A stretch of DNA of 64,000 nucleotides from NCBI GenBank assembly GCA_018818125.1, contig JAHISQ010000101.1, positions 14,977 to 78,976 on the forward strand, read 5' to 3'. Both the position numbers and the translations under genes were made by a program. This DNA is from Candidatus Rifleibacteriota bacterium (GTDB lineage: Bacteria > Muiribacteriota > Ozemobacteria > Ozemobacterales > Ozemobacteraceae). The notes beneath the pieces were generated by a model that was given only the letters and a program-made list of their open reading frames with translations, made no database searches and was not told where the DNA came from. How positions within the stretch are numbered: the first letter of the stretch is position 1; the number at the start of each line of letters is the position of its first letter. Below are positions 877 through 20,650 of the stretch, one piece after another.

Positions 877-878
877 TC

Positions 879-3012: not shown

Positions 3013-3013
3013 C

Positions 3014-3694
3014 ATGGTACAGCTAGAAGAAATTCGCAAAACGTTTCCCATGGAAGCAGGCCCTGTTTATGCTCTGCGAGGCGTTAATCTCCACATTAAG
3101 CGTGGCGAGATGGTTGCTATCACAGGTTCCTCCGGCAGCGGCAAGACGACTCTGATGAATATTCTTGGCTGTCTTTCAAGTCCGGATTCAGGAACTTACC
3201 GCCTGGCAGGAGAAGAAGTGTCAAACCTTTCGCAGCAGCAGCTGGCAACAATTCGTAGTCGCCGCATCGGTTTCGTCTTCCAGACCTTCAATCTTCTTCC
3301 TCGACTTAATGCCTTGCAGAATGTCGAATTGCCGCTGCTATATGCGCGGGCAACCGCAGGGGCCATAGACCGAGCTCGGCATGCTCTGGAGCGCGTCGGG
3401 TTGGCAGATCGGGTAGAACATTTTCCGAATCAGCTTTCTGGCGGCCAATGCCAGCGAGTTGCCATCGCCCGAGCCCTGGTAAACGAGCCAAGTATAATTC
3501 TCGCCGACGAACCTACAGGTGCCGTCGATAGTGTAACCAGCCAGGATATCATGAAGCTTTTTCACAGTCTGCATGCCGAGGGGCGAACTATCATAATCGT
3601 CACGCACGACCAGGGGGTTGCCGCACAATGTGAGCGACAGATTGTTCTAAAAGACGGCACTGTAACAATTCCTGGCAAAGGAGGAAATTCCTGA
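3014..3694 (+). CDS. ABC transporter ATP-binding protein (MacB/LolD-type)
   Basis: Walker [11 protein letters not shown]-loop, ABC signature [15 protein letters not shown], Walker [13 protein letters not shown]-loop VTHD. Confidence 0.9.
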
Positions 3695-4899: not shown

Positions 4900-5017
4900 C
4901 AATTTTCCAATACCACAACTCAGTTAGCCGCTGGTAGCAAACTTGCCTACTGGTTCATTGAAGCACTCTTCCATCTGGGAAGATGACAATGACTATTCTA
5001 TATACCCGGAGAAAAAA

Positions 5018-6355
5018 ATGAAACTTGTAAAACTTTGTATTGTTCTAATCTTGCTTTTCAACAGCATCGCTATTTTGGGGTCTGAGGAAACTCAGATAAA
5101 AAAGTGGAGTCTTTCCGAGTGTCTCCAATACGGGCTTGAGAATCATCCCTTGATTCGAATTTCTGAAAGTTCCATAACTTCTGAAAATGCCCTTCTTAAT
5201 CAAACTCGAGCCTATTGGGATCCTAAAGTGGATCTGCACGCGAATTGGAATCACCGAAAAACTTATACAAGCGGAGTAATTGATGATGTTGTGGACAGCA
5301 CATCCGAATCAGTTGGAGTAAACAAGGTATTGTATGATTCCGGTCAGAATCGTTTTGACGTATCTTCCGTAAAAAGTTTGATTAAATCAGCAGAATCCCG
5401 GCGCGAAAATACTCTGCTCGAAGTAGCTGCTGGAATTAAAAAAGCCTTTTATGCGGTGCAACAAGCACAGGCGCTGATTCTTGTCCAAGAGGAAACTCTG
5501 GATGGATATCAGAAGCACCTCGCAAAAGTTGAGACCTATGTTGAAGTTGGAACCAAAACCCCTTACGATATCACCAGAGCAAAAGTTGACATTGCCAATT
5601 CACAGGTTGAGCTTATTTCCGCCAAAAGCCAGCTTAAAGTGGCCAAAGCCAACCTTGCCAAAGCCATCGGGCTCGAAGCAGAACTTGATATTGCTGATTT
5701 TGAGCTTGCCGAATTGCCGCAATTTGAAGCTGTCAGAGAAGATCTGAAACAGGAAGCATTCAGTAGACCCGAATTGAAATCTGCGGGCTTTGAAATAGAT
5801 TCAGCTGATGCAAAAATCATGAGCTTAAAAAGAAGCCTCAAGCCAACTATTGCCGCTTCAGCTGATTATTCATGGAGCGGAACCAATACTCCTTTGGACA
5901 GACAATGGACTGCCGGAGTCAGCCTTAACTGGTCTCTTTTTGATGGCGCTCTTACCAGATCAAAAGTTGATGGGGCGAAAAGCCAGCTTGTCAGCGCCAG
6001 AGAGAATCTAAGAAATTTGCGATTGGCAGTTAACACTGAACTCGAGAATGCACTGACAAGCCTTAAAGACGCGCTTGAAAGACATAACGCCACCGGGGTC
6101 CTTGTTCAGCAGGCCAGCGAAAGTTTGAGTCTGGCCGAAGGCAGATATGATGCCGGTGTAGGAAACCCCATCGAAATTAATGATGCAAGAGTTGAATATG
6201 CACGAGCACGCGGTAATTTTGTGGTCGCGCATTTTGATAGCCTGATAGCTTCAGCAGAAGTTGAAAGAGTTGCAGGAAGGTTGCCTGACGAATATAAGAT
6301 TCAAGCTATGGAGCCACTTAAACCAGCCCCTGAATTGTCTTCGGGTGTAAAATAG
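5018..6355 (+). CDS. TolC-family outer membrane efflux protein
   Basis: ATG at 5018 preceded by GGAG; signal peptide MKLVKLCIVLILLFNSIAIL; two repeated alpha-helical/beta-barrel halves typical of the OEP family (TolC-like sequences such as LSECLQYGLENHP, RYDAGVGNPIEINDAR). Confidence 0.8.
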   Translation: MKLVKLCIVLILLFNSIAILGSEETQIKKWSLSECLQYGLENHPLIRISESSITSENALLNQTRAYWDPKVDLHANWNHRKTYTSGVIDDVVDSTSESVGVNKVLYDSGQNRFDVSSVKSLIKSAESRRENTLLEVAAGIKKAFYAVQQAQALILVQEETLDGYQKHLAKVETYVEVGTKTPYDITRAKVDIANSQVELISAKSQLKVAKANLAKAIGLEAELDIADFELAELPQFEAVREDLKQEAFSRPELKSAGFEIDSADAKIMSLKRSLKPTIAASADYSWSGTNTPLDRQWTAGVSLNWSLFDGALTRSKVDGAKSQLVSARENLRNLRLAVNTELENALTSLKDALERHNATGVLVQQASESLSLAEGRYDAGVGNPIEINDARVEYARARGNFVVAHFDSLIASAEVERVAGRLPDEYKIQAMEPLKPAPELSSGVK

Positions 6356-6430
6356 CCGCTGTCATTGGGCATTTTGCCGGCTATTCTACTGTTCTCGAAA
6401 TGAATAGTATCCTGGCGCGCCGCCCAGCTC
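6355..6430 (+). repeat. degenerate duplicate of the 3-prime end of the FtsX permease gene
   Basis: 6355-6414 matches 4738-4797 at about 54/60 nt (GCCG.TG.CATTG.G.ATTTTGCCGGCTAT.CTACTGTTCTCGAAATGAATAGTATCCTG); 6415-6430 matches 4852-4867 (GCGCCGCCCAGCTC) with the intervening about 55 nt deleted. Confidence 0.6.
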
Positions 6431-6459
6431 AAAACAGATTTTCGAAAAGGAGCCTCATT

Positions 6460-7080
6460 ATGAAAAAAATCGCTCTATATATCTTTTTCAGCCTTGTAGT
6501 CGCAGTCCTGGCCATAGGGGCTCAGACTCTGCTGGAAAAACCGGTTCGACAGGCGCTCTCCCCGCTGGAAGAGCAATCTGTCTCGTCGCCAGCTTCCGGA
6601 AAAGCATTCGTCCTTCTCAGTCCGGAAGTTTCGAACGGGGGACAACTTCCCAAGGATTTCACTGGTGACGGAACCGGTTCCACCCTCCCGCTCGAATGGA
6701 GCGGAGCCCCGGAAGGAACCAGAAGCTTCGCGGTCATCATGCATCATGTGGCGCCTGATAAGACCAAATGGTATTGGACTATCTACAATATTCCGGCGGA
6801 CTCAAAAGGTCTTCCTAAAAATGTCAAAGGGATCGGCATCCTGGGCAATAACAGTGTGAACGATCGGACGGAATACGCCCCACCACACTCGAAGGGTCCC
6901 GGCGACAAAACCTACATCTATACCGTCTACGCCCTGTCCGCGCCCCCAACAATCACCGTTCCTCCCCGGGAGGTTAATCGGGATGTCCTGCTCACCGCCA
7001 TGAAGAATCTCATTCTTGACACCGCCGAAATGCGCGTTGTCTACTCACGCCCGGGGGACACTCCTCCGCCGCGGCATTAA
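6460..7080 (+). CDS. YbhB/YbcL-family phosphatidylethanolamine-binding (PEBP/Raf kinase inhibitor-like) protein, secreted
   Basis: ATG 6460 about 9 nt after AAAGGAG; signal peptide; motifs FAVIMHHVAPDK, WYWTIYNIPA, YIYTVYAL typical of the bacterial PEBP family. Confidence 0.75.
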   Translation: MKKIALYIFFSLVVAVLAIGAQTLLEKPVRQALSPLEEQSVSSPASGKAFVLLSPEVSNGGQLPKDFTGDGTGSTLPLEWSGAPEGTRSFAVIMHHVAPDKTKWYWTIYNIPADSKGLPKNVKGIGILGNNSVNDRTEYAPPHSKGPGDKTYIYTVYALSAPPTITVPPREVNRDVLLTAMKNLILDTAEMRVVYSRPGDTPPPRH

Positions 7081-7393
7081 AGGTATTCCATGTGAGCTTT
7101 ACTTTTCTTAAAATTGTCTTATCGTCATTTAAATGAAAGTTTCCAGCAGGGAATCAAAAGGACTGTTTTTTTAAATTTAACTTTGAGTCTCTGTGGTCTG
7201 CTACAGCATCTGCTCAAGATCTGACTTTTGCAGCTTAGCTTTTTCCGCCTGAAATTGCTGCATCTGAGCCCATGTAAAACTTCAGTTTCTCTGAAAAGTC
7301 AGGCCAATTCAAATATCAATAATGAATGCAAAAGCGATAACGCGTAAGGATAGACGCGGAAAATGAGGCCGTTCATGGGTCTTATTGTAATAA

Positions 7394-7458
7394 GGCTGCC
7401 TTACCGGCCCATAACTCTTATTATATCAATAATAAGAATTCGGGCAGGTAAGACAGCC
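7394..7458 (-). terminator. long imperfect hairpin downstream of the lipoprotein gene (candidate terminator)
   Basis: GGCTGCCTTACCGGCCC (7394-7410) pairs with GGGCAGGTAAGACAGCC (7442-7458), about 14/17; the loop holds the palindrome CTTATTATATCAATAATAAG; sits between convergent genes (PEBP + and lipoprotein -). Confidence 0.35.
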
Positions 7459-7480
7459 GGTTACTTGTGGACGCTATTTT

Positions 7481-10213
7481 CTAGAAGGTAGGAGCGCCTG
7501 GTGGGGGAAGCATAGTGCCGTCATCAGGAGCGCCTGTAGGAGGAAGCATGCCACCGCCGCCGGGGGGAATGGGCATGGCGTCGGCTGTGCCAACTACTGT
7601 AGCAATAGAGGTCATAGCAGCAGTTGTATATAACGTTCCATTAGAGTATGTGCCGCCTGAATACACGCCATCCTTGTTGATTCCGCTATGAGAGCCACCT
7701 ATAAAGATTGAATAGGTTTCGCCTACGGTAAGTTTGCTGCTGCCAAAAACCAGAGAATTAGAGTCCTGGTTTCCAAAGCAGGTAAGTATTTCATCCTGCG
7801 TTGAATCCATGATATGAATAAGCTGCCCTTTGGGAACGCTTACTGAGAAGTTTACGTTCAAAGATGGTACCGAAGAATAGCTAGCGCCCGGAGCATGAGC
7901 CATTGAGGATGGCCCTAATCCCACAAAGGTTCCTCCAGTAAACTTGAAATTTCCCTGATCGGTGTCAATTGCAGCATTTGCAATACCAAGAGGGTTTGCG
8001 TTAGAAACTAGAAAACCACCGGAAATAGATAGATCACTATTGGTATCCACTCCGTCGCCATTGGATTCAACATAAATGTAGCCACCACTGATGCTGATCA
8101 GATGAGTAGTTCCGTCGCCAGCGGTACCTCCCGCATTAATGCCATCAGAATCATCAAGAGGAGTGGATATTCTTATATCGCCGCCCTCAATTGAAAGAAT
8201 GGCTTTACTTTCAATGCCTTCTTCGCCATTGAATACGTAAATTTTGGGATCGCTGTCTTTACCAATCGTGACATTAGAAGTTCCAGAAATGCCTTTACCC
8301 AATGACGGGTAAGCCCTGATGGCCGGGGAACCTGTTATATCGACAGTTCCTTTGCTTTTAACAGCATGGTCAGTGGTGTTAAAAGTAAAATCGCCACCAT
8401 TAATAACAATGCTACCATTTCTTGTATCTGTGCCAGTTTTTATACCCTTGCTGCTTTCATCCTGAGCTTCAAAAGCTGTATTGGTGGTGGTAACATTGAA
8501 TGTTCCGCCACAGATTACCAGTTCGTCTGTAGCCTGAATACCGTCTCCAAAAGCGTTTATGTTAAAATTGCCTCCAGCAATGTAAACATCTCCATCAGGA
8601 GTTATTGTAGTGTCATCTTCCCAGTCGTTTTCGGCCTTAATAACATCACCGCCTCGACTTGTAAGGTTGAACGTTCCTTTAACAATATAAACGTAGGTTT
8701 CTGAGCTTTCGATGCATTCACCATCACCGGCAACTGTGACATTAAAGGTTCCGTCGTTGATTGCGACCATTTTTCCCTTAATACCGTTGCCGCCAGCAGT
8801 GACATTAATAGTTCCCCCGGTTATAACCAGGCCTTTTGTTTCACCTTTTGACTGAATACCGTTTTCTGAAGACTTTCCGTTGATAGTCAGAGTGCCACTG
8901 CCTTTTATCAGCAGGTCACCTTTTATGAACAGACATGCCCCAGGTTCGTCATCGTCAGCGTATGTATAAGTAGTAGCATCGCTAAGAGTGTTAGTTTTAC
9001 CCGCGGGAAGAATAATTGTGATCGGAGTTGATTTTTTCTCACTGTATATTGCTGCATGGGTCTGGCCAGCTATAGTAACACCGTTTAGAACGAGAGTTAC
9101 ACCGTCAGTCAGTTTGCCTGAGACAAAAATATGGCCATCGAGAGTTCCAGACAACACGTAAGTCCCTGCAATATCAATAGTTACAACGCCGTTAGAATAT
9201 GTTGCACCTGCGCCGTTTATGACAGTTTCGCTATTATTAAGCGTGATGGAAGTGGCGCCGGCAGTATTGTAGGTCGATTCTGAATCAGCATCTAAAAAGG
9301 TGTACGGCGCAACCTTTCCCGCATCCGCAAGGGTTGAAGAAGTTCCTGAAATTGCTGGCCAGCTTGAGGTAGTAGAAGTAAAGACTGAGTTCGTGCCTGT
9401 AGTGGTGCCAGGCGGTACATTGGTGCCTCCAGGATTAGCGCCGGGGATTATGGCTGTACTGGTTGCTGTACCGGCTAATGGGTTGGCTGAACTGAAGTCT
9501 CGATTGGTGGTAGTAATTTCCGTCGCAATTTGCTCCAATTGGCTAACAGCTGCGCTGTAAGTTGCCGAAAACACGTTTCCGTTAGCCCATTCATTTAGAA
9601 AAGGTACAAATACTGCGGTTGTCGCACCTGACAAATATGCAGTGTAAGACGAGATATTGGCTGCAAAATTATTTGCAACAGAACCTATCACTTCGATCTG
9701 ATGTTGATCGAGATTCTGAACAAAATTGTTGTAGGTTCTAATTGTTGGATTGGTGCTGGTTTTCCATTTTTCAAAAGCAATTCGCCGGGCAGTTGACAAC
9801 GAGGTTGCTTCTATTGTTGTTGTGTTGCTGGCAGCTTCGAGATTTTGCATAGCAGAAAGAATTGATGTTCCAGAGGCATCAAGCAACTCTACCAGAAACT
9901 CTGTATAAGCTTCTGCAAAGCTTATTGTTCCACCAAGCGTTCCATCAGAATTGGCAGATGCTGTAACCTCGCTCCAACTTCCAATCGGTTCGCCGGACGA
10001 CATTGCCTTAACACGAAATCTGAAGAGATTGGAGCTCAGAGTTGCAGCCCGTAAACTGCTGAATGTTGTTCCGGTGCCAAGATCCGCTTTCAATGTTAAA
10101 CCAGTGGTTGTATCAGTATTGGCAACAGTTGTGGAAGAAGAACCGCCGCCTCCACAGCCCACGGCGCAAAGCGCCACAACAATTAAACAAAGAGATAATA
10201 ATGTTCTTTTCAT
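7481..10213 (-). CDS. large surface lipoprotein with right-handed parallel beta-helix repeats (carbohydrate-binding/pectate-lyase-like fold)
   Basis: Lipobox MKRTLLSLCLIVVALCAVGCGG; many G-G-x-F/I-N-V/I-T turn repeats (GGTINVTAGGNG, GGNFNINAFGDG, GGDFTFNTTD) typical of a beta-helix; Thr/Ser-rich linker; C-terminal Pro/Gly-rich MLPP repeats. Confidence 0.6.
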   Translation of the reverse strand: MKRTLLSLCLIVVALCAVGCGGGGSSSTTVANTDTTTGLTLKADLGTGTTFSSLRAATLSSNLFRFRVKAMSSGEPIGSWSEVTASANSDGTLGGTISFAEAYTEFLVELLDASGTSILSAMQNLEAASNTTTIEATSLSTARRIAFEKWKTSTNPTIRTYNNFVQNLDQHQIEVIGSVANNFAANISSYTAYLSGATTAVFVPFLNEWANGNVFSATYSAAVSQLEQIATEITTTNRDFSSANPLAGTATSTAIIPGANPGGTNVPPGTTTGTNSVFTSTTSSWPAISGTSSTLADAGKVAPYTFLDADSESTYNTAGATSITLNNSETVINGAGATYSNGVVTIDIAGTYVLSGTLDGHIFVSGKLTDGVTLVLNGVTIAGQTHAAIYSEKKSTPITIILPAGKTNTLSDATTYTYADDDEPGACLFIKGDLLIKGSGTLTINGKSSENGIQSKGETKGLVITGGTINVTAGGNGIKGKMVAINDGTFNVTVAGDGECIESSETYVYIVKGTFNLTSRGGDVIKAENDWEDDTTITPDGDVYIAGGNFNINAFGDGIQATDELVICGGTFNVTTTNTAFEAQDESSKGIKTGTDTRNGSIVINGGDFTFNTTDHAVKSKGTVDITGSPAIRAYPSLGKGISGTSNVTIGKDSDPKIYVFNGEEGIESKAILSIEGGDIRISTPLDDSDGINAGGTAGDGTTHLISISGGYIYVESNGDGVDTNSDLSISGGFLVSNANPLGIANAAIDTDQGNFKFTGGTFVGLGPSSMAHAPGASYSSVPSLNVNFSVSVPKGQLIHIMDSTQDEILTCFGNQDSNSLVFGSSKLTVGETYSIFIGGSHSGINKDGVYSGGTYSNGTLYTTAAMTSIATVVGTADAMPIPPGGGGMLPPTGAPDDGTMLPPPGAPTF

Positions 10214-10362
10214 ATTGTCCTTTTCATCAAAGTATTTGTCAGCCTTTTTGGGGAAAGCTTAAGGATTTGCTAAGACACAACAAAGTTGGGTGCACAAACG
10301 CATGGAAATCATGAGTCTACGACTGAGGGTGCGCCAATCATTGCGCCCGCCATTTTTTTGTA

Positions 10363-10875
10363 TTATGCAGAAAGATTGATCATCAAGCCGCTTTGAAGAA
10401 TTCCTTTTGCCTGAAGCTGCTCAATAATGCTTTGCTGATCATCTTCTGAAAGATTGTTTAAATCAAAATTTTGCAGAATCTCAGACAAAGGCTGTAGTAA
10501 GTCTACATTTAAGCTGTTGCCAGAAATAGCGGAACTGGTTCCTTCGCTCTCGCCTGATTTAGGTGGAGGAGGCGGTCTATTGCCACCTTTACCCTTTGGT
10601 GCGCCTGTTTGTTGTGTCCCTGATTCATCTTCAGGTCTCAGCTGGCCAGGATCAAACCCAGCGCTTTTTATAGCGTCTCCAAGGGCTTTGGTTGGGGTGA
10701 AATTTGCGCTTTTGAGTTCAGATTTTAGTTCGGCAAGAGAACTTTCGTCCATGTTTTCAGCGTCATAATTGCTGAGTATTTCCTGTAGTTTCTTTGAGTC
10801 AGTGCTGCTTAACTGGCTACTAGATTGAGATGGCGAAAAAGAGCCTACGTTACCATTGATACTACTAATTGACAT
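10363..10875 (-). CDS. hypothetical Ser/Gln-rich protein with two internal repeats (paralog A)
   Basis: ATG at 10875 six nt after GGAGGA; 170 aa, no signal peptide; internal repeat KKLQEILSNYDAENMDESSLAELK / LQPLSEILQNFDLNNLSEDDQQSI; about 85% nt identity to the copy at 14097-14600. Confidence 0.6.
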   Translation of the reverse strand: MSISSINGNVGSFSPSQSSSQLSSTDSKKLQEILSNYDAENMDESSLAELKSELKSANFTPTKALGDAIKSAGFDPGQLRPEDESGTQQTGAPKGKGGNRPPPPPKSGESEGTSSAISGNSLNVDLLQPLSEILQNFDLNNLSEDDQQSIIEQLQAKGILQSGLMINLSA

Positions 10876-10942
10876 TTTATTCCTCCAGATAGAATTTGAT
10901 TTAATCAATATCACCTGTATGATATTCTTTTGAGAAGTCTAC

Positions 10943-10964
10943 GTCTGTTAAATGAATGTAAAAT
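10943..10964 (-). promoter_or_regulatory. conserved 22-nt motif GTCTGTTAAATGAATGTAAAAT (copy 1 of 3), candidate OmpR-family operator
   Basis: Near-identical copies at 14671-14692 and 16940-16961, all 70-180 nt upstream of minus-strand start codons; contains the direct repeat TGTTAAAT..TGTAAAAT with 11-bp periodicity. Confidence 0.35.
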
Positions 10965-10999
10965 CGAGTAAGAGCAGACGGTGCATAAAAAATCTGATT

Positions 11000-11587
11000 T
11001 TACTGTTTTCTATTTTTATAAAAAATCATAACATCTGCGCTGTCTTTTAAAAAATCAATATCTCCGATTTCAAACCTGACAATGTTTTGTATTCCGGTTC
11101 TTTCTTTGAGATCTTTCAAAAACAGTTCATGATTTTCCGGTTTTATCATTTCTATTTTTTCATATCTAATATTTTTTTTTGTTTCATAGCTGAAACCCCA
11201 GCCGTTTTCAAGCACCCAGGCAACAGTAACAATACAAAAATTTGCTACAGCAAATTGTGTGTACAAATGGTTATTCAACATTACGGCATTCATTACTGAA
11301 GAAGACATGATAATAAACAGATAAGTCATGTCTCTTATCGGAAGAGTATCGGTACGATAACGTAGCACAGAGAACAATGCAAACAGGCCAAAACCAACCC
11401 CAACACCCAGTTTAACATTTGTCACCAGCCCAATAACGAAGAAAATTACCGTACTGAAAGAAATGAACGTGAAAATGTTATTCTTGTCATGACTCAAAGA
11501 GCAGTAAATAAATCTGGTAATAATAAAAACAATCGCCAAATTCAATAAAAAACCAGATAAATACAATGAAAACGCATCCATTAACAA
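11000..11587 (-). CDS. DUF4956-family integral membrane protein
   Basis: Five predicted TM helices; LFSVLRYRTDTLPIRDMTYLF resembles the DUF4956 signature; DUF4956 proteins typically pair with VTC-domain proteins, as here. Confidence 0.55.
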   Translation of the reverse strand: MLMDAFSLYLSGFLLNLAIVFIITRFIYCSLSHDKNNIFTFISFSTVIFFVIGLVTNVKLGVGVGFGLFALFSVLRYRTDTLPIRDMTYLFIIMSSSVMNAVMLNNHLYTQFAVANFCIVTVAWVLENGWGFSYETKKNIRYEKIEMIKPENHELFLKDLKERTGIQNIVRFEIGDIDFLKDSADVMIFYKNRKQ

Positions 11588-12378
11588 ATTCTCCCAGCCA
11601 GCTTATTTACGAGCAAAACTTTTTCTTTAAAATTATTTTTTTTAACATTGTTATAAAGCACTGAAACACCGATGCAATACTTACTGAAGCCTTCTTCTCT
11701 AACGGACTTTTCTGACATCAGTCTCACAAAATCAGATTTGTGCACCAGTCCATCTTTTTTAACTTCTGCGATAACAATTCCCTGCAGATCTACAACTTTA
11801 TCCTGATTTGAATTTGCAAATTCCAGGTTCAAATCAATTGTTACCCTTTCAATACTTGTCTTGCTGACCAGAGTAATACGCGTATACCTGTTCCACAAAA
11901 CTGGTTGCAAATCTTCTGCGCGAAATTTGCTAATTTCTGAAATGAATTTTTCAGCATCATTGTCGAAATAAGCCCTGATAGCAGGAACTTTTATTCGGTT
12001 TTTTTGGGTTACACCTTTGTTGTTCTTGAATTTGACTTCCATGAATGATTCGGCGGAATCCATATACTCTCTGATGCGAACCTTGTATCTGTTCATTACT
12101 CCGTTATGATGGCTTCTATACATTTCCAGATCAGAAGTATCGAAATAGAGCGTTTGATAGTTGTTTTCTCTTTTGTCTTTTATCTCAAGAACCTTGTAAT
12201 ACTTTGTCAGATTCTCAAGCACCTCAGTAAGCATGCTGACGTTCATCACATATTTTATGTCAGACCTCTTCATGAGCGCGACAGATTTCATTTCATCAAG
12301 CGTAACAGTTTCAAATTCACTAAGTATAGGGCTTAATTTGTTTTCTGCCAAAAGCGACTGATTTCCTGAATTGTGCAT
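11581..12378 (-). CDS. VTC-domain (polyphosphate polymerase-like, CYTH superfamily) protein
   Basis: DIKYVM...YQTLYFDTSDLEMYRSHHNGVMNRYKVRIREYMDSAESFMEVKFKNNKGVTQKNRI matches the bacterial VTC-domain pattern (E-Y-K-Y..YFDT..Y....G...R.K.R.R.Y....FLE.K.K); 7-nt overlap with the downstream DUF4956 gene. Confidence 0.65.
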   Translation of the reverse strand: MHNSGNQSLLAENKLSPILSEFETVTLDEMKSVALMKRSDIKYVMNVSMLTEVLENLTKYYKVLEIKDKRENNYQTLYFDTSDLEMYRSHHNGVMNRYKVRIREYMDSAESFMEVKFKNNKGVTQKNRIKVPAIRAYFDNDAEKFISEISKFRAEDLQPVLWNRYTRITLVSKTSIERVTIDLNLEFANSNQDKVVDLQGIVIAEVKKDGLVHKSDFVRLMSEKSVREEGFSKYCIGVSVLYNNVKKNNFKEKVLLVNKLAGRIC

Positions 12379-12562
12379 TTTGAATACCGCCTTGATTGTT
12401 TCTCTTTAATCAGCTGTCTACATTATAATATCGGGAAATCTACGCTGCTCTGTCATTAAGAAATGTTAAGCAATGTTAATCTGTAAGATGTAATTGCTTG
12501 GCTGACAGGTTTTGAACGCTTGAGACCAGAGTCAAACAACAGTTCGAATCGCAAGCAAGCAG

Positions 12563-13879
12563 TTAATCAATCATCATTTGCAACGAAACGAGATACTTTT
12601 TCTCGGAAGACTTGTCGTCATCGCTGTCTTTACTATTTGTTCTGCTATACTCGATCTCACCAGAACATTTTTTAGAAATATCGAACTTAAATCCGGTCTT
12701 GAACTTATTTTCATAAGCATCTTGCCCGTATCTGCTGATATCAAGAGAATTGCCAGTTGTATAAGTTTCAGTTCTCCGACTGAATTCCATAAACAGCAAA
12801 GTGTCGCGTGATAACTTCCAGGAAGGGGCGATTTCTATTGTCTTACGTTTAGAGGATCGATCGACCATACTGATGACAGGCGCATTTTCTTTTAATTTGC
12901 CGTCACCGTTTGCGTCAATCTTCGAAATAGTTTCATCATAAAGAAACAGCTCCTGATTGGTTTTTGAATCAACCTCTCCATATTGATACTGAATTCGAAG
13001 TCCAAATCTGGAGTAGAATTGTAAAGCCAACTCCAATCCGCCGTAAGGTAGTTTGTAGCTACGATTGCTGAAAGTGGAATTGTAATTTCGCCAACGATAT
13101 CCGACAAACGGCACGAGATTTAAATCAGAAAGTTTTTTATGTTTGTTTTTAATCAGAGCATATTTGTAAGCAAACTTGCCTTCAAAGTCATCATAAATAG
13201 CCGATGAATAAATTCGCTCTTCCCTGGTAATGTTACCGTTTGAATTCGCATCCTGTACACCTGAAAGATAATTCTTTTTGAACTTTCCAAAAGACAATTT
13301 TCCATCAAACTCCAGTTTGGCGTTTTCTCCAGCATCCCTTTCAAGTTTTATACGCCCTTCAGGAAAACTCCCTTTGGCATTCTTTGTGTAATAATTGTAG
13401 CGCAAAATACTGGTCATACTCAGATTGCCGGTCGCAGGATTTTTAGATTGAAACTTGGCGCCAATAGCAGGTGCAATGATTTGCTCAGAGATAGAATTCA
13501 TATCTGAATATCTATTTGTGGCTTGATCCGTTGCATCGTTTGTTGTCAGCCTGGTCTCTTGAGAATCGGAAAGATTGAAAATATTGTCAGAATACTCAAA
13601 ACCAATTTCAGAAAACAAACGTATCTTCTTCTGCTCAGTTATCTTATCTTTTTTCTTCTTTTTTTTAGAATCCTTAGCGCCAGGATCTGTGATTTCATCA
13701 GCAACGGCTACAAGTATAGCTGACTGATTTAAATTTTTAACAATATTTTCAGCTTCCAATGCTGTTTGGCTCTCATCGGGATGAATCTGAGCCATGCAAG
13801 GGAAAGGAAAATGTAGCAGCACCAAAAAAACACATGTTACCTGCAACAAAAAACAACAGGATTTTTTTCTATTCTTCAT
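12563..13879 (-). CDS. putative outer-membrane beta-barrel protein, Lys-rich N-terminal region
   Basis: Signal peptide MKNRKKSCCFLLQVTCVFLVLLHFPFPCMA; KKKKKKDK tract; alternating amphipathic beta-strand patterns ending in an aromatic residue; follows the VTC/DUF4956 pair on the same strand. Confidence 0.45.
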   Translation of the reverse strand: MKNRKKSCCFLLQVTCVFLVLLHFPFPCMAQIHPDESQTALEAENIVKNLNQSAILVAVADEITDPGAKDSKKKKKKDKITEQKKIRLFSEIGFEYSDNIFNLSDSQETRLTTNDATDQATNRYSDMNSISEQIIAPAIGAKFQSKNPATGNLSMTSILRYNYYTKNAKGSFPEGRIKLERDAGENAKLEFDGKLSFGKFKKNYLSGVQDANSNGNITREERIYSSAIYDDFEGKFAYKYALIKNKHKKLSDLNLVPFVGYRWRNYNSTFSNRSYKLPYGGLELALQFYSRFGLRIQYQYGEVDSKTNQELFLYDETISKIDANGDGKLKENAPVISMVDRSSKRKTIEIAPSWKLSRDTLLFMEFSRRTETYTTGNSLDISRYGQDAYENKFKTGFKFDISKKCSGEIEYSRTNSKDSDDDKSSEKKYLVSLQMMID

Positions 13880-14096
13880 TTATTTTCTCCATGGAGCGCC
13901 TATCTATAAGCTTTTCAAAAATTGCAATATCTTGCATCACCGAACACTATGGTAAGAGTCTGAATAAACACATCAATAATGATGGTGCTGAAATTCGTGA
14001 TCAATCTACGTAAATAATGATTGATGCTTGTTGTTAATTGAGCCAGACATCGTCGCGTTGAGATGCGACAATCTTTCGCCGGCATGGTTATTGGTA

Positions 14097-14600
14097 TTAT
14101 GCAGAAAGATTGATCATCAAGCCGCTTTGAAGAATTCCTTTTGCCTGAAGCTGCTCAATAATGCTTTGCTGGTCATCTTCAGAAAGATTGTTTAAATCAA
14201 AATTTTGCAGAATCTCAGACAAAGGTTGTAGTAAGCTTTCATTTAAAGTGTTACCAGAAGCGCTGACACTATTTCCTTCAGCTTCTCCAGACTTAGGCGG
14301 AGGAGGAGGTCTATTGCCCTTTGGTGCGCCCGTTTGCTGTGTCCCTGATTCATCTTCAGGTCTCAGCGCTCCAGGATCAAATCCGGCGCTTTTTATGACA
14401 TCTCCAAGGGATTTGCTCGGAGTAAAATTTGCGCTTTTCAGTTCAGATTTCAGTTTGGCAAGTGAACTTTCATCCATATTTTCAGAGTCATAATTGCTGA
14501 GTATTTCCTGTAGCTTCTTTGCGTCACTGATGCTTAGCTGACTACCAGATTGAGTTGACGAAAAAGAGGCGGTGTTGCTAGTGATACTACTAATTGACAT
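14097..14600 (-). CDS. hypothetical Ser/Gln-rich protein with two internal repeats (paralog B)
   Basis: ATG at 14600 after GGAGGA; 167 aa, collinear with paralog A; main difference is the absence of the GKGG insert in the PPPPPK region. Confidence 0.6.
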   Translation of the reverse strand: MSISSITSNTASFSSTQSGSQLSISDAKKLQEILSNYDSENMDESSLAKLKSELKSANFTPSKSLGDVIKSAGFDPGALRPEDESGTQQTGAPKGNRPPPPPKSGEAEGNSVSASGNTLNESLLQPLSEILQNFDLNNLSEDDQQSIIEQLQAKGILQSGLMINLSA

Positions 14601-14670
14601 TTTATTCCTCCAGATAGAGTTTGATTTAATCAACATCACTACCCGTAGAGTATTCTTTTGAGCAATCTAA

Positions 14671-14692
14671 GTCTGTTAAATGAATGTAAAAT
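14671..14692 (-). promoter_or_regulatory. conserved motif GTCTGTTAAATGAATGTAAAAT (copy 2)
   Basis: Identical to copy 1; about 70 nt upstream of the paralog B start and just after the histidine kinase stop. Confidence 0.35.
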
Positions 14693-14710
14693 TGAGTAAG
14701 CGAGTGTAAG

Positions 14711-16048
14711 CTACTGGCTAAAATACAACTCAATCTGAAACCCTTTTGGATCGGCATTTCTCAGGCTTACACTTCCATTGAGTTTCCTTACAATTCGGTT
14801 AACAATTGATAAGCCAAGTCCAGGGCTTTCACTGCCAAATTCCACTGAGCCACTGGAAAAAGGCACTAGCAATTCGGCAATCTTATCTTCAGGCACTCCT
14901 GGTCGCTGATCTTTGAAAACAATCCAAAACTTGGATATGCCATCTACTTGCTGGAGACTCAAAGAGATATTGATTTCTGAGTTTTGTGGCGAATACTTGA
15001 TACTATTTCTAAGAACGCTTTCACAGGCTCGCCGAAAAAGGAGAGGGTGAGAAACACACTGTAAGCTGGTTCTGTTCTTGAAAACAAGGTTGATCCTCTT
15101 ATTGTCAGCTTCTATTTGCAAATCTGCTAATAGATCATTAAGCAAATGATCTATTCTGAAAGACTCTTTTGGGCCCATTAGACCGGCATCAATTTTTGCT
15201 ACTGCAAGAATCTGATCAACCAGGCTTTTTATTCGGTGGCACTCCAGTTTTATCCTGCTAATTTCCTCTGAATATTTCTCTGGATCAGTCATTTCAATGG
15301 ATTCAATGCTTAACTGCAGGCGGGTCAAAGGCGATTTGAATTCATGAGAAATCTCATGAAAAAGCTTTTTCTGGCTGGAAACAAGGATTTCGAGATTTTC
15401 AGCCATTCGATTAAAACCTCGTGCCAGATCGCCGATTTCGTCTTCTCTGACAGTTAGTTGTTCACTTGTTCTGGCTGACAAATCATTGGTACCTAGTCGA
15501 AAAGACGTGTCTCGAAGATTTATCAATGGATTAATGATTGTTCGAGAGAGTCTGTAACAAAGAAAAAGCGCTACAGACAAAACGATTAGCAACCTGAAAA
15601 AAAACAACTTGTCTGCCAAGAATGATTCAATGAGACCCACAATAACAGGCCCTTCAAACATTAAAAAACCTGATTTGCCTTGTGAATAGTAAAACTTTTG
15701 AATAATTGTAACCCTGTCTCTTCCACGTTCTTTGTAAATATCCTTAGCACACAAAGACTCCATAGCCGGTTGAAAAGCTTTTGGAAGCTCTTTTTCAGCG
15801 TAAAACCTCCATACTTCAGGGCCATGACTTATCGCCAGAAGCTTCTTATTAAAATCTACCTCTCCATCTTTTTCAAGAATAGGAATACCTAACAGAAGAA
15901 TCATGTCGGCTCGATGGTTATATGCATCATCAATTGGCGGCGGGGGCCTGAAATCAGAAGTTAACGCAACAGTTAAAAATATTATGCCAAAGAAAAGAAT
16001 ACTAAAAAACGTAAAGCCCCAAAAAATCTGCCAGAAAATTGATTTCAT
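14711..16048 (-). CDS. sensor histidine kinase (two TM segments, HAMP, HisKA, HATPase_c)
   Basis: Periplasmic loop between two TM helices; H-box EISHEFKSPLTRLQLS; N-box and G-boxes (GFQIELYF, SPGLGLSIV); 4-nt overlap with the upstream response regulator gene. Confidence 0.85.
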   Translation of the reverse strand: MKSIFWQIFWGFTFFSILFFGIIFLTVALTSDFRPPPPIDDAYNHRADMILLLGIPILEKDGEVDFNKKLLAISHGPEVWRFYAEKELPKAFQPAMESLCAKDIYKERGRDRVTIIQKFYYSQGKSGFLMFEGPVIVGLIESFLADKLFFFRLLIVLSVALFLCYRLSRTIINPLINLRDTSFRLGTNDLSARTSEQLTVREDEIGDLARGFNRMAENLEILVSSQKKLFHEISHEFKSPLTRLQLSIESIEMTDPEKYSEEISRIKLECHRIKSLVDQILAVAKIDAGLMGPKESFRIDHLLNDLLADLQIEADNKRINLVFKNRTSLQCVSHPLLFRRACESVLRNSIKYSPQNSEINISLSLQQVDGISKFWIVFKDQRPGVPEDKIAELLVPFSSGSVEFGSESPGLGLSIVNRIVRKLNGSVSLRNADPKGFQIELYFSQ

Positions 16049-16761
16049 TTCTTTTCCTCTGGAGAAACAAAAATGACTCCAGCGTTTCTAATGGTTAAAA
16101 TTCGCTCTTCACCATTTGGCCTGCAACCAATTTTTTTCCTGACTCTGCTTAAATGCACATCAATTCTTCTGTCGATGGAGTGAAATCCTTCATCCAAAAG
16201 AGACTTGGAAAGATCTTCTTTGCTGACAACTTTGCCGCAATTCTGCATAAGCAGCTTCAACAGCTCGAATTCTTTGGTTCTCAATTCTATGGTCTGTCCT
16301 GTTTTTTTGAGCGACATTGATTCTAAGTTTAGCTCCAGGTCTTCAATACAAATGGTTGGTTTGTTTTCAGCATTTTCAGGCAACGAGCCAGCTTTGTTAA
16401 ATCTTCGTAAAACAGCGCTGATTCTTGCGCATAGCTCGCGAAAATAGAATGGTTTTGACAGATAATCGTCAGCACCTAATTCAAGCCCTAAAACTCTATC
16501 GAGCTCCTCACCACGCGCTGTCAACATAATGACCGGAATCTCAGATTCTCTTCTGAGAAGTTTAAGGATTTCGAATCCGTTGGTATCTGGAAAATTTACA
16601 TCCAGCAAGATTAAATCAGAGTTCAGACTGTTGCAAATTCCAAGATCTTTAACCGGGTCAGTGCTGTAGTGAAAGTCGTAACCCTGACTTGAAAAGTATT
16701 TTTTCAAGATCTCACAGAGCTCAAGATCATCATCAAACATTATAATTCTTGGCGAGACCAT
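16045..16761 (-). CDS. OmpR/PhoB-family response regulator (REC + winged-helix)
   Basis: REC motifs (DDD...DLILLDVNFPDTNGFEIL, K at SKPF); C-terminal trans_reg_C wing (ELRTKEFELLKLLMQNCGKVVSKEDL...RRIDVHLSRVRKKI). Confidence 0.85.
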   Translation of the reverse strand: MVSPRIIMFDDDLELCEILKKYFSSQGYDFHYSTDPVKDLGICNSLNSDLILLDVNFPDTNGFEILKLLRRESEIPVIMLTARGEELDRVLGLELGADDYLSKPFYFRELCARISAVLRRFNKAGSLPENAENKPTICIEDLELNLESMSLKKTGQTIELRTKEFELLKLLMQNCGKVVSKEDLSKSLLDEGFHSIDRRIDVHLSRVRKKIGCRPNGEERILTIRNAGVIFVSPEEKK

Positions 16762-16939
16762 ATTTATGCGTTTACCAACTCTAGAAAAGTATAAATCGTC
16801 TTAGCGTTATTGCAAAGCTTTCTTTCAAAGCTTTGTTACAGGAAAAGTCACCTGTACATCAGAACTAAGTCGATGACTTGGAAGATAACTTTTTGTAAAT
16901 ATTTTGTACTAGTTTATCATAATGATACAAACTTTGATT

Positions 16940-16961
16940 GTCTGTTAAATGAACGTAAAAT
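16940..16961 (-). promoter_or_regulatory. conserved motif GTCTGTTAAATGAACGTAAAAT (copy 3) upstream of the response regulator gene
   Basis: 21/22 identity to copies 1 and 2; lies between the regulator start codon (16761) and the IS3 remnant. Confidence 0.35.
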
Positions 16962-16987
16962 ATTGAAAATAGCCGTGTAGAGCAAAA

Positions 16988-17225
16988 GACCAGGTCCGGG
17001 TTTGATTCTTCACTCTGATCGTGAAAGCGGTATTGCTGCAACGAATTTCGTGCGCTGCTGGCCTTTCATGGGATGAAAAGCAGCATAGCAGAAAAGGAAA
17101 CTGCTGGGACAATGCTGCGGCAGAAAGCTTCTTTGCTTCACTGAAAAAAAGAACAGACCCTGTCTTTTCAGCGCTTTGACCATATCCAGGTAAAGCTTGT
17201 CGAGTTTCTGCTGTTCCTGTGGTAA
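16988..17225 (+). pseudogene. IS3-family transposase (OrfB integrase core) C-terminal remnant, frameshifted and 5-prime truncated
   Basis: Translations give RPGPGLILHSDRESGIAATNFV then, after a frameshift, KGNCWDNAAAESFFASLKKEQTLSF, i.e. the hallmark IS3 motifs HSDRGSQY...SMSRKGNCWDNA.AESFF..LK.E; no upstream catalytic domain and no intact ORF. Confidence 0.6.
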
Positions 17226-17502
17226 CATAGAATTATCTTATCAATCGTGATGTATCCGGGCCTAAATCCCGGTGGCAGAGGAGTTTTACAACGGGCATCA
17301 TCAGGAGTGGAGAATGAGAAACAGTTTTTGTCCTGTTCCGACTGTTTCCTTACGCAGAGTATCTGTGTGCCCGGTACAGCCCATATGCATAAGGCTAAGG
17401 ACTGCTCCCTATTCGGCTTTCCGACCTCTATGCAATGTGATTATGGGAAACATTTGAATACAATGATATTTGCATTTCTCTCATGCGAGGTATATTAAAA
17501 AT

Positions 17503-18534
17503 ATGAATAGATCAAATCCTTTTGAGTTGGGCCCGATAAGACCGGTTGATGAAGCCGGTAGTCTTTTAATTCGTACAACACGGGGCTGTCCATGGAACAA
17601 GTGTGATTTCTGCGTTAACTACAAGGGTATGCCTTTTTCTATCCGAAAAATGGAAGAGATAAGAGCTGATATTGAAGCCGCTGCACAATATTACAACGGG
17701 CGGGCATTTGACTCATGTTTTCTTCAGGATGGTGACAGCTTTATCATGAAGACATCTGATCTTCTGGAGGTTTTAAAGCTTCTCAAGCAGCATTTCCCTA
17801 CACTTACAAGAATTTCCAGCTATGGGCGCGCGCAAACAATGACAACAAAAAGCCTCGAGGAAATGAAAGAAATCTGTAATGCAGGCCTTAATACATTATA
17901 TTGCGGAATGGAATCGGGTTCTGATATCGTCTTGAAAAATATACACAAAGGCACAACCGCAAAAGAGCTTATACACTCTGGCTCTATGGCAAAAGACTCG
18001 GGAATGGTCATCTCCGAGTTTATTATTCTTGGATTGGGAGGGCAGAAACTGTGGAAGGAACATGCACTTGAAACTGCACGCGTACTCAACGAGATAAACC
18101 CGGATTTTATCAGGATCCTTACGATAGGTGTCAAGAAAGGATCTGGATTAGAGAAGCAGTTAGCGGAAGGAAGCTACACGCTTCAGACCGAGACGAATCT
18201 TATTGAAGAGCAGCGACTTCTCATTGAGCATTTGGATGGTATTACAAGCTATTATAAGAATCATCACGGAGTAGACTTGCTCATGGAGGCTCGTGGCCAA
18301 CTGCCTGAAGATAAGGAAAAACTGTTGGCAATAATGGATCGCTATCTCAATTTATCGAAAGAAGAAAGAAATATCTATACTCTGGGAAAGCGAACAGGAC
18401 TGTACAATTGCCTTGACGATATGGACAATAAGGATTTAAGAGTACAGGTAGAGGAAAAGTTAGCAGAAATTCAGAAATTATATCCTGGGCAGCTTGATGA
18501 AGTCTTCCACTATCTACGCGAACAGGTCGTATAG
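17503..18534 (+). CDS. radical SAM superfamily protein with non-canonical C-x4-C-x2-C cluster motif
   Basis: ATG at 17503 (the ORF in the supplied track starts earlier at 17470 without an RBS); TRGCPWNKCDFC in the N-terminal region, then GGDSF (SAM-binding glycine-rich motif) and a TIM-barrel-like pattern; 344 aa, no C-terminal Cys-rich SPASM/twitch domain. Confidence 0.65.
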   Translation: MNRSNPFELGPIRPVDEAGSLLIRTTRGCPWNKCDFCVNYKGMPFSIRKMEEIRADIEAAAQYYNGRAFDSCFLQDGDSFIMKTSDLLEVLKLLKQHFPTLTRISSYGRAQTMTTKSLEEMKEICNAGLNTLYCGMESGSDIVLKNIHKGTTAKELIHSGSMAKDSGMVISEFIILGLGGQKLWKEHALETARVLNEINPDFIRILTIGVKKGSGLEKQLAEGSYTLQTETNLIEEQRLLIEHLDGITSYYKNHHGVDLLMEARGQLPEDKEKLLAIMDRYLNLSKEERNIYTLGKRTGLYNCLDDMDNKDLRVQVEEKLAEIQKLYPGQLDEVFHYLREQVV

Positions 18535-18590
18535 AGGAACTGGTGATAAGGAAACGCTTATGACTCTGGTTTGTTTTGCGAAACAGTGCT

Positions 18591-18731
18591 AAGACACAAG
18601 ACAAGCTTCTCGTCCCTGGCGCCTTGGCTGACACAAATTTGTTCATTTCATTCACTTTCAGAAAGAGATTAATCAGGGTTATCTCTGCAAGGGTCATGAT
18701 CAAAGGTGAATTTAGGGAGTATGAAAAATGA
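18591..18731 (+). pseudogene. BrnT-like (DUF497) type II toxin C-terminal remnant
   Basis: Translation LLVPGALADTNLFISFTFRKRLIRVISARVMIKGEFREYEK* resembles the BrnT C-terminus (..LLVVVYTERGD.IRIISARKATKKER..YE); N-terminal half missing (in-frame stop at 18588); TGA overlaps the ATG of the next ORF (ATGA). Confidence 0.4.
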
Positions 18732-18907
18732 AGAAAATAATTCCAAAATTTAATAACGAACAGGAAGAAAGAGAATTTTGGCTGGCTCATGACTCCTGCG
18801 ATTATGTAGACTGGGCTGACGCTGAAAGAATTGTTTTCCCAAACTTAAAACCCACATCAAAAACAATTTCAATTCGTCTGCCAGAAAGCAAAAATAGAGC
18901 CTCGTAA
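18728..18907 (+). pseudogene. BrnA-like antitoxin, C-terminally truncated (lacks the RHH DNA-binding part)
   Basis: MKKIIPKFNNEQEEREFWLAHDSCDYVDWADAERIVFPNLKPTSKTISIRLPESKNRAS* matches the BrnA N-terminal region (..EAEE.EFWE.HDS.DY.D.S.A....FPNLKPSTKTISLRLPESLL...); ends 5 residues after RLPES where full-length proteins continue about 30 aa. Confidence 0.55.
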
Positions 18908-18949
18908 CAAAAGCGTAAAGAAGGAAATGAAAAAGGATAATAAGAAATT

Positions 18950-19807
18950 TTGAGAAAAAAATATTTAGTGATTTTCTTGATCTTGTTTGTTCTTGTAACA
19001 CAGCACTGTTTCTGTCTGGTTCGTTGTATCACCCAGGAGGAAATATTTCTAGATCGCGGGAATTTAGCCTTATTCATTAACAAATCTCAACCAGAGAATA
19101 TTGTTGTGGGGCCAATTTATGGAAAATATTTTGAGAGTAATGATTTTGGGATAGCTTTCAAAATAATTTCAAGTTTTACACCCACACTTTTTGATAATTT
19201 TATAGATAGCAGCTTTAAGCAGCTTTACCAGCTTGAATTTGCCACCGACAGCCTTGTTTTAAATTTTAAAAAGACTGATGAAGCTGATTGGACTCCGACA
19301 AGTTTATCAGAATTTGTTGGCATGCTCGAATGGTCAAATTATTTAACAGGATGCAGTTATGGAAAAGTTCGGTTCTTTGAAAACTATGAATTAAACTCAA
19401 AGGTATCCGCACTTTTCTGTGTTTTACTGACTATTTTTGCTTCTATCTCTTTGAACAGATGCGTAGCGAAGGAAAAAAGAAATTATTTGTTTTGGCCTAC
19501 TGTTCTTTATTTTTCTTTTTTCTACTATTTGTTCCTCCTTGTTTTGCCGCAGTTTTGCGAAATTTTCCAAGGAATGTCGTTAAATAGATTACCTAACTCC
19601 ACGATTTGCTTATTGACTTCTTTTGATAGTTATTATGGGATGTTTCTTAATTCGATCGTATTTACCCTATTTTCGCCAACAATCTTTTTCCAACTTCGCC
19701 ATATTTTAACGGAACAAAAAGCAAAGTTCCTCCAGGGAGCATGGGTTCTACTTTTTCTTTCCTTCATGGCACTTATGGTTTTTTGTATCTTTATGCCAAT
19801 GCTTTAG
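18950..19807 (+). CDS. hypothetical polytopic membrane protein
   Basis: 285 aa; N-terminal signal/TM; a soluble domain of about 130 aa then four or more TM helices; ends 3 nt before the DDAH-like gene. Confidence 0.45.
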   Translation: MRKKYLVIFLILFVLVTQHCFCLVRCITQEEIFLDRGNLALFINKSQPENIVVGPIYGKYFESNDFGIAFKIISSFTPTLFDNFIDSSFKQLYQLEFATDSLVLNFKKTDEADWTPTSLSEFVGMLEWSNYLTGCSYGKVRFFENYELNSKVSALFCVLLTIFASISLNRCVAKEKRNYLFWPTVLYFSFFYYLFLLVLPQFCEIFQGMSLNRLPNSTICLLTSFDSYYGMFLNSIVFTLFSPTIFFQLRHILTEQKAKFLQGAWVLLFLSFMALMVFCIFMPML

Positions 19808-19837
19808 GTTGTGCGCAGCGTGACATCGCTAAAAAAC

Positions 19838-20650
19838 ATGAAAATTGCTATTGTTAATAGACCTAATTTCGCGCTCAAACAGTGCGAATTGACTTTTCTA
19901 AATCGAGTATCAATAGATCTGGCAACAGCACAAAAACAGCACTCAAACTATATTGAAGCTCTAAGAAATACTGGTGCCCAGGTAGAAGTGCTGGAGGTGA
20001 ATCAGACGTCTCCAGACTCTGCATTCGTTGAAGACGTAGCAGTCATTCTCGATGAGTTAGCTGTAATTACATCTATGGGAATTGCGGCTCGCCGGGAAGA
20101 GGTTATCCTCATGGCAGATCTGATCGCAGGCTTCCGCCAAGAAGTCCGGCATATTCCGCTTCCCGCAACCATTGAAGGCGGCGATGTCTTGAGGGTAGGA
20201 AAAACACTCTTCGTCGGTGAAAGTTCACGCACCAACCGGGCTGGAATCGCAACGCTTGGGGAGATCGTCAGGCCTTTCGGATACAACGTTGTGTCGGTGA
20301 GAGTTCATGGTTGCCTTCATTTAAAAACCGGCGTTACTGCTTTAAATGACGAAACATTTATTCTCAATCCCGACTGGATCGACCCATCGCCTTTTGAAAA
20401 TTTCAAACTAATTCATGTAGCTTCCGACGAACCATGGGGAGCCAATGTGTTACGAATTGAGAATTGTCTAATCGTTAATGCTTCTTATCCACGAACCGCT
20501 GACCGGATCGATGCATTAGGACTTCGGAGTGATAGAGTTTACATATCTGAGTTCGGAAAAGCCGAGGCCGGGCTAACTTGCATGAGTCTGGTTTTCGAAA
20601 AAACGATAACAAGTGCGATAGCCACGTTGCCCAAATCAGGCAAGAATTGA
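19838..20650 (+). CDS. dimethylarginine dimethylaminohydrolase (DDAH)/amidinotransferase-superfamily hydrolase
   Basis: ATG at 19838 (the supplied ORF starts at GTG 19811); motifs GGDVL, VRVHGCLHLKTG and C-terminal EFGKAEAGLTCMSLVF with the catalytic Cys, as in DDAH / arginine deiminase-like enzymes. Confidence 0.65.
   Translation: MKIAIVNRPNFALKQCELTFLNRVSIDLATAQKQHSNYIEALRNTGAQVEVLEVNQTSPDSAFVEDVAVILDELAVITSMGIAARREEVILMADLIAGFRQEVRHIPLPATIEGGDVLRVGKTLFVGESSRTNRAGIATLGEIVRPFGYNVVSVRVHGCLHLKTGVTALNDETFILNPDWIDPSPFENFKLIHVASDEPWGANVLRIENCLIVNASYPRTADRIDALGLRSDRVYISEFGKAEAGLTCMSLVFEKTITSAIATLPKSGKN

Follow-up and report, generated by a model that had tools for sequence, protein, structure and literature searches.

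A candidate operator of a putatively autoregulated CpxR-like two-component system in the uncultivated phylum Riflebacteria

The Cpx two-component system of Enterobacteria combines an OmpR-family response regulator with a membrane kinase carrying HAMP, HisKA and HATPase domains, and a small accessory target gene, cpxP, adjoins the pair. The system is autoregulated. In pho promoters, the binding site of PhoB, whose half-sites are of the CTGTCAT type, replaces or overlaps a weak −35 element at a fixed distance from the −10 element. This site measures 22 bases and consists of two 11-base direct repeats (PMC3978041). CpxR sites follow the relaxed consensus GTAAA-N4-8-GTAAA, and the one in the mexA promoter of Pseudomonas aeruginosa, GTAAACCTAATGTAAA, reads GTAAA-N6-GTAAA (PMC5063474). 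Here we describe a 22-base motif in a 64,000-nucleotide stretch of DNA from Candidatus Rifleibacteriota bacterium (contig JAHISQ010000101.1, positions 14,977 to 78,976, forward strand; hereafter the window). Comparative evidence indicates that this motif is probably the operator of an adjacent CpxR-like response regulator, situated in three activator-dependent promoters of the sigma-70 type.

The motif, GTCTGTTAAATGAAYGTAAAAT on the + strand, matches only three places in the window even when 3 mismatches are allowed, and 0 copies were found in 100 shuffles. A sequence-only reading of this DNA had placed each copy upstream of a minus-strand start codon, namely those of two paralogous small-protein genes (paralogs A and B) and of an OmpR-type regulator. 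This arrangement was confirmed: copy A ends 67 bases upstream of the ATG of paralog A (at 10875), copy B 70 bases upstream of that of paralog B (14600) and copy C 178 bases upstream of that of the response regulator (16761). Read in gene direction, the motif is ATTTTAC(A/G)TTCATTTAACAGAC, which divides into two 11-base direct repeats, ATTTTACATTC and ATTTAACAGAC, that are identical at 8/11 positions. The two direct half-sites described earlier are therefore present, and their period of 11 bases is within the range expected for about one helical turn (10–11 bases). The sites and the promoter elements predicted around them are as follows.

10943 to 10964, minus strand: site A, ATTTTACATTCATTTAACAGAC, in the predicted promoter of paralog A
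14671 to 14692, minus strand: site B, ATTTTACATTCATTTAACAGAC, in the predicted promoter of paralog B, beginning 19 bases past the kinase stop codon
16940 to 16961, minus strand: site C, ATTTTACGTTCATTTAACAGAC, where the regulator is predicted to bind, at about −52 to −31 in the promoter of the regulator-kinase operon
10968 to 10971, minus strand: additional TTAC half-site core of site A, preceding the first half-site by 10 bases
14696 to 14699, minus strand: extra TTAC, the copy B equivalent of the same element
10919 to 10924, minus strand: predicted −10 TATCAT of promoter A, with a predicted start at about 10912 and a leader of about 37 bases
14647 to 14652, minus strand: predicted −10 TACTCT of promoter B, with a predicted transcription start at about 14640
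16916 to 16921, minus strand: predicted −10 TATGAT of promoter C, with a predicted transcription start at about 16909
16939 to 16944, minus strand: weak −35 CAGACA of promoter C, overlapping the motif end

For phylogenetic footprinting, six related Riflebacteria-type contigs (L004, L005 and L014 to L017) were scanned with the window motif at ≤5 mismatches and then with a weight matrix. On these contigs the kinases are 38–54% and the small proteins 55–59% identical to those of the window. Kinase homologues at 38–54% identity are present on L014, L015, L016 and L017, all of which keep the order regulator, kinase, small protein, with the orthologue of paralog B after the kinase gene; L005 carries the 3′ end of the kinase gene and then the small-protein gene. 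Nine further sites emerged from the scans, and every one of them is at one of two kinds of location.

Upstream of the regulator gene, at the same relative position as site C: L014 9152, L016 9146, L017 9200
Upstream of the small-protein gene: L004 822, L005 317, L014 11344, L015 1923, L016 11342, L017 11380

All nine point toward their gene, and the slot of site B directly past the kinase stop codon is the same in L005, L014, L015, L016 and L017. The DNA flanking the sites cannot be aligned between contigs. Weight-matrix scores of the sites range from 25 to 36 bits, and the best scores after them are 9 bits for the 64-kb window and 10.7 bits for the related loci. The half-site cores, TTTAC-N6-TTAAC, are kept in 11/11 non-duplicate sites, and the L014 regulator site is, in reverse complement, a perfect GTAAA-N6-GTAAA. 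Small-protein promoters usually have a further TTAC core 10 bases upstream, of which there are several in L014 and L015, whereas regulator promoters mostly have just the two repeats. TT is found at the extra-half-site columns in 10/11 sites, the full TTAC mostly in small-protein promoters.

The geometry of the promoters became apparent when the 12 sites, three from the window and nine from the relatives, were aligned by anchoring on the motif and offsets 1–49 were examined. In 12/12 sites, a gap of exactly 18 bases separates the motif from a downstream TAnnnT hexamer (offset +19 to +24), which occurs at any other offset in at most 2/12. The conserved columns are TTTAC, TT, TTAACAG and C in the motif, followed by T−12, A−11 and T−7 of the hexamer. 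Given this fixed distance, the motif falls at about −52 to −31 in a promoter of the sigma-70 type: with the hexamer taken as the −10 (−12 to −7), the motif is centred at −41.5, and its 3′ end (cAGACn) stands in place of a weak −35 with a spacer of 17 bases. Only 3–4 of the 6 positions in this −35 region agree with TTGACA. A consensus promoter scanner independently reports CAGACA-17-TATGAT at 16944 to 16916, in copy C. In silico, the motif occupies a promoter location in fixed phase with the −10, and this predicted position is the one used by PhoB-type activators.

Other assignments of the same letters were tried and rejected. With TTTACA or TTAACA as the −35 element, the conserved TAnnnT would lie after a spacer of 32 or 21 bases, and no conserved −10 is found where a 17-base spacer from either would put it. 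An RNA element was also rejected: the window has no Rfam match, and the motif is upstream of the predicted −10. At 16788–16816 on the minus strand, about 27 bases upstream of the regulator ATG and downstream of the motif promoter, a second promoter-like match (TTTGCA-17-TATACT) could serve as a basal, regulator-independent promoter of the operon.

Two of the window sites belong to a duplication, which allows the constraint on the motif to be estimated. The genes and modules concerned are listed here together with the two-component system.

10354 to 10972: duplicated promoter-plus-gene module A, 87% identical to its partner, module B, at 14088–14700
10363 to 10875, minus strand: paralog A, 170 residues, dN/dS 0.21 against paralog B
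14097 to 14600, minus strand: paralog B, 167 residues, no Pfam family, in a conserved slot after the kinase gene
14711 to 16048, minus strand: sensor histidine kinase, with two transmembrane segments and then HAMP, HisKA and HATPase domains
16045 to 16761, minus strand: response regulator of the OmpR/PhoB family, CpxR-like, with Pfam Response_reg and Trans_reg_C domains

Copies A and B lie inside the duplication, and copy C lies outside it, as the earlier reading had recognized. Copy C has the 22-mer alone in common with them. Between the paralogs, synonymous divergence (dS) is 0.40, the ratio of nonsynonymous to synonymous divergence (dN/dS) is 0.21, and 31% of the synonymous sites have changed. 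Because of these values, both paralogs are taken to be maintained by selection. The 22-mer is identical at 22/22 positions between the modules, with 0 changes, and the chance of 22 neutral sites staying unchanged is ∼3e-4 (0.69^22). The −10 hexamers of A and B differ by 3 substitutions, all at the nnn positions.

The adjoining regulator was correctly described before as OmpR-type; it has both a receiver and a winged-helix domain. Our analysis adds to that reading that the regulator is specifically CpxR-like and that the motif resembles the CpxR box. Among 78 families, the best NCBIfam match of the regulator is CpxR at 197 bits, whereas PhoB models score only 160–167 bits. The protein is 45% identical to Escherichia coli CpxR across 229 residues; its recognition helix region reads DRRIDVHLSRVRKKI versus DRAIDMHISNLRRKL in E. 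coli, and its phospho-acceptor context LLDV aligns with that of CpxR. The start of the kinase gene overlaps the regulator stop codon. The best NCBIfam matches of the kinase are CpxA models, which cover residues 151–441 only and remain below their cut-offs. Its likeness to CpxA is confined to the cytoplasmic core, and in the kinase core (residues 212–443) the two are 28% identical.

Several links point to the adjacent regulator as the protein that would bind the motif. The motif accompanies the regulator-kinase pair and is found ahead of the regulator gene as well; sites in which direct repeats follow each other at one helical turn are the hallmark of OmpR/PhoB dimers; and the motif resembles the CpxR box, CpxR being the best curated family match of the regulator. 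We propose that an envelope-facing signal would activate the membrane kinase, which would lead to phosphorylation of the regulator. The phosphorylated regulator would then bind the two 11-base direct repeats as a head-to-tail dimer and, from a site centred near −41.5 over the poor −35, recruit RNA polymerase to the −10 located 18 bases downstream. Copy C would drive the regulator-kinase operon, giving positive autoregulation, and in silico the same box precedes the regulator gene in the window and in L014, L016 and L017. Copies B and A would drive the two small-protein genes as the main local outputs, much as cpxP serves the Cpx system. Read-through from B may extend to the outer-membrane-like, VTC and DUF4956 genes, and from A to the Cthe_2159 lipoprotein gene. 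The earlier proposal that the pair autoregulates and controls both paralogs gains strong support from footprinting in six contigs, with the regulator as the presumed binding protein.

The same position of the motif could be read differently. If the regulator bound it as a repressor, covering the −35, its own operon and the small-protein genes would be off until released. The overlap of the site with the −35 position is compatible with such an arrangement, as is the annotation of E. coli CpxR as a dual regulator. However, a poor −35 (cAGACn) and imperfect −10 hexamers are typical of activator-dependent promoters rather than of strong ones needing repression, a centre at −41.5 is the classical activating position, and the extra in-phase half-sites upstream of the small-protein genes fit cooperative activation. 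From the poor −35, the imperfect −10 hexamers and the centre of the site, activation would be favoured, and we regard repression as improbable. The motif might also be a real promoter element recognised by some other transcription factor encoded elsewhere in the genome, since bacteria encode many OmpR-family regulators with similar tandem-repeat sites. This explanation is very unlikely, given that the motif accompanies the regulator-kinase pair in the window and in all five kinase-bearing relatives (L005, with the 3′ end only, and L014 to L017), stands directly upstream of the regulator gene, and has a half-site resembling that of CpxR, the closest characterised relative of the regulator.

Two further explanations do not involve the adjacent regulator. 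Promoters of extracytoplasmic function (ECF) sigma factors have −35 elements that contain AAC, the motif has TTAAC, and an ECF sigma gene lies at the window start, so that the motif might be the −35 part of such a promoter with AAC as its core. ECF promoters have about 16–17 bases between this element and a CGTC-like −10. In our alignment, however, the conserved TAnnnT lies 22 bases past AAC and is a housekeeping-type −10 at the wrong spacing, nothing is conserved at the ECF −10 position, and a sigma −35 would leave the tandem repeat and the additional in-phase upstream repeats unexplained; the ECF assignment is scarcely credible. The idea that the motif is functionless, either a residue of duplication or the end of a mobile element, draws on the two copies in the duplication and on a weak integrase-core fragment that starts about 25 bases upstream of copy C. 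It is effectively refuted by the comparative data, because six other contigs, whose flanks have diverged, keep the motif at orthologous positions and because it is unchanged in the duplication despite a dS of 0.40. Moreover, the window has no other copy, and near-exact scans of 596 Gb of genomes and Joint Genome Institute (JGI) metagenomes returned only 8 matches. These are from unrelated organisms, and none has TAnnnT at +19; three are near-identical contigs, others lie inside open frames, and the number of matches is roughly the back-of-envelope chance expectation.

One element encountered in this way deserves separate mention. A near-identical stretch of about 75 bases that contains ATTTAACGTTCATTTAACAGAC is located outside long open frames at L006 1108, L009 742 and L011 3793, with L006 coming from a Candidatus Bathyarchaeota metagenome-assembled genome. 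It is a putative conserved non-coding element unrelated to the promoter studied here, as it has no TAnnnT at +19.

An activating operator of the adjacent CpxR-like regulator is the reading we prefer, and several points weigh against it. The regulator, at 197 bits, does not reach the cut-off of the CpxR equivalog model (NF008199, 341 bits), and the kinase scores 172 and 140 bits with CpxA equivalog models whose cut-offs are 800 and 486. No match was found for the periplasmic sensor domain of the kinase, which cannot be aligned to that of CpxA. The half-sites are spaced by 11 bases, not by the 10 that are canonical for E. coli CpxR boxes, and the proximal half-site is TTAAC, not TTTAC. Because the site overlaps the −35, repression is conceivable in principle. 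All knowledge of the organism comes from metagenomes, and the view of the regulon is that from about 150 kb of sampled sequence. The collection scans recovered no Riflebacteria-type locus, nor the known related loci, and are therefore silent on further regulon members.

These points also mark where the locus departs from Cpx. Among the likenesses are an OmpR-family regulator encoded together with a membrane HAMP/HisKA/HATPase kinase, an adjoining small gene as a predicted target, a regulator operon that carries the same box, and CpxR and CpxA as the best curated family matches of the pair. The TTTAC/GTAAA half-site also occurs as a tandem direct repeat reading toward the small gene, as it does in the E. 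coli cpxP-cpxR spacer, which reads TTTACgttgtTTTAC toward cpxP. Besides the equivalog scores, the periplasmic domain, the repeat period and the proximal half-site, the locus differs from Cpx in gene arrangement: the small gene follows the kinase gene, runs the same way and has a box to itself, whereas the Cpx genes are divergent and share a box. It also belongs to the phylum Riflebacteria, not to Proteobacteria. The reverse complement of the motif, GTTAA-N6-GTAAA, has one mismatch to the relaxed CpxR consensus and lacks the canonical 5-base spacer (GTAAA-N5-GTAAA).

The mexA site of P. aeruginosa has the same 11-base period as the window motif. Its target is an efflux operon, and its host is a proteobacterium whose recognised CpxR orthologue shares 47% identity with that of E. 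coli; in the window, by contrast, the system is predicted to act on its own operon and on the genes of an uncharacterised small protein. Like the pho box, the motif is a 22-base pair of 11-base direct repeats that keeps a fixed distance to the −10 and extends into a weak −35, and some promoters of both kinds have additional in-phase upstream repeats. It is unlike the pho box in its TTTAC/TTAAC half-sites, and the regulator scores lower with PhoB models than with CpxR. No phosphate-related genes were seen among the neighbouring genes of the window locus, and the motif does not qualify as a pho box. As judged from these comparisons, the circuit would be Cpx-like in design and PhoB-like in operator-promoter geometry, while falling outside strict CpxR, CpxA and CpxP membership. 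Very probably, it is an autoregulated CpxR-like circuit of the OmpR family in an uncultivated phylum, of an ordinary, well-known design that involves no new mechanism.

In the small protein encoded by the predicted target gene, a disordered N-terminus rich in Ser and Gln is combined with two helical modules and a linker of poly-proline. The earlier label of Ser/Gln-rich repeat proteins does not really fit this protein of about 170 residues. In the structure model, the helical modules span residues 24–79 and 124–156 and the poly-proline linker is disordered (AlphaFold mean predicted local distance difference test score 65, moderate). The start of paralog A is an ATG preceded by GGAGG, and not the upstream GTG of the mechanically called open reading frame. 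The protein has no Pfam or NCBIfam family and thus no Spy/CpxP-type match, no signal peptide, no transmembrane segment and no hydrophobic N-terminus, and a Foldseek search against the PDB gave nothing at E ≤ 0.001. By these comparisons it is not CpxP, although its predicted position in the circuit is comparable.

A single-sequence search of 5.8 billion proteins found a close family of 8. The wider family found by profile search comprises at least 764 clusters, and those that are named belong to Anaerolineae and other Chloroflexi. In two members taken from other lineages, no linkage to a two-component system is seen, and for this reason the linkage looks specific to the present clade. More distant homologues in L002 and L003 (40% identical) are without the motif. 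It is possible, if rather doubtful, that this small Ser/Gln- and Pro-rich protein is a new kind of two-component accessory or feedback protein, cytoplasmic and in the place of CpxP in Riflebacteria, and that duplication together with its promoter tunes the gain of the circuit. Such a protein might, for instance, target the regulator or the kinase core.

The neighbourhood of the small-protein genes shows several recurring features. The distant homologues (L002 9320–10570 and L003 2497–3782) directly follow an HSP20 gene, and L017 has three HSP20 genes (5751–9029) immediately ahead of the regulator gene. The repeated association with small heat-shock proteins hints at a role in protein stress. 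The small-protein genes on L004 (822–1436) and L005 (317–905), which are Logan contigs from the sister runs SRR28714108 and SRR28714107, are 48% identical to each other; the L004 gene is alone, the L005 gene follows the kinase gene, and the motif is present at both. A two-copy arrangement may exist in a related species too, having arisen independently of the 87% duplication in the window. In L014, L016 and L017, the next gene after the small-protein gene, within 1 base in L016 and L017 and after 75 bases in L014, encodes a sulfatase-family domain together with about 5 transmembrane segments.

L014 12037–13725: sulfatase-family-domain gene region
L016 11988–13637: sulfatase-family-domain gene region
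L017 12045–13751: sulfatase-family-domain gene region

This gene is probably co-transcribed from the motif promoter in these relatives. We take its protein architecture to resemble that of LtaS/EptA-type envelope-modifying enzymes, which would suit an envelope-stress role. The window proteins include no homologue of it, and other genes occupy that slot.

On the minus strand of the window, the gene order is regulator, kinase, paralog B, a signal-peptide protein with weak beta-barrel and EF-hand matches, a VTC-domain protein, a DUF4956 protein, paralog A and a 910-residue lipoprotein with a Cthe_2159 domain. A consensus scan found no convincing terminator in gene direction in the gap between the kinase and paralog B or past the paralogs. 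A G+C-rich hairpin at 10327–10348 lies directly past the stop codon of paralog A, with a T-run on the + strand only and an A-run preceding it on the gene strand. The block at 10000–20000, which includes the two-component system, the paralogs and the VTC and DUF4956 genes, has a G+C content of 0.38–0.41 versus 0.45–0.50 in the flanks and may be an acquired or compositionally distinct island. The integrase-core fragment near copy C (16985–17180, + strand) is frameshifted and resembles an IS3-family transposase, with the peptides LILHSDRESG and RKGNCWDNAAAESFFASLKK and a weak, sub-cut-off match to Pfam rve_3 (E 0.004–0.01). This looks like an old insertion that ended shortly before reaching the regulator promoter.

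At the start of the window, positions 1–6355 (L001 14521–20513) carry the ECF sigma gene, two small open reading frames, one with a weak Metal_resist match, and a MacAB-type ABC efflux system with an adaptor and an OEP outer-membrane factor. This region may be a second, separate envelope-stress module, and the 22-mer is absent from it.

Among the titles listed by a literature search on the name of the phylum, none concerns regulation, and we found no previous account of a regulator-operator pair from Riflebacteria. The CpxR-type recognition code, with its tandem TTTAC/GTAAA repeats, appears to reach far beyond Proteobacteria, and so does the design in which an autoregulated two-component system is joined to an adjacent small target gene. 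The clean promoter architecture, with the predicted operator at −52 to −31 and the −10 at a fixed distance, would be suited to heterologous reporter work, and an otherwise blank family of small proteins gains a regulatory context.

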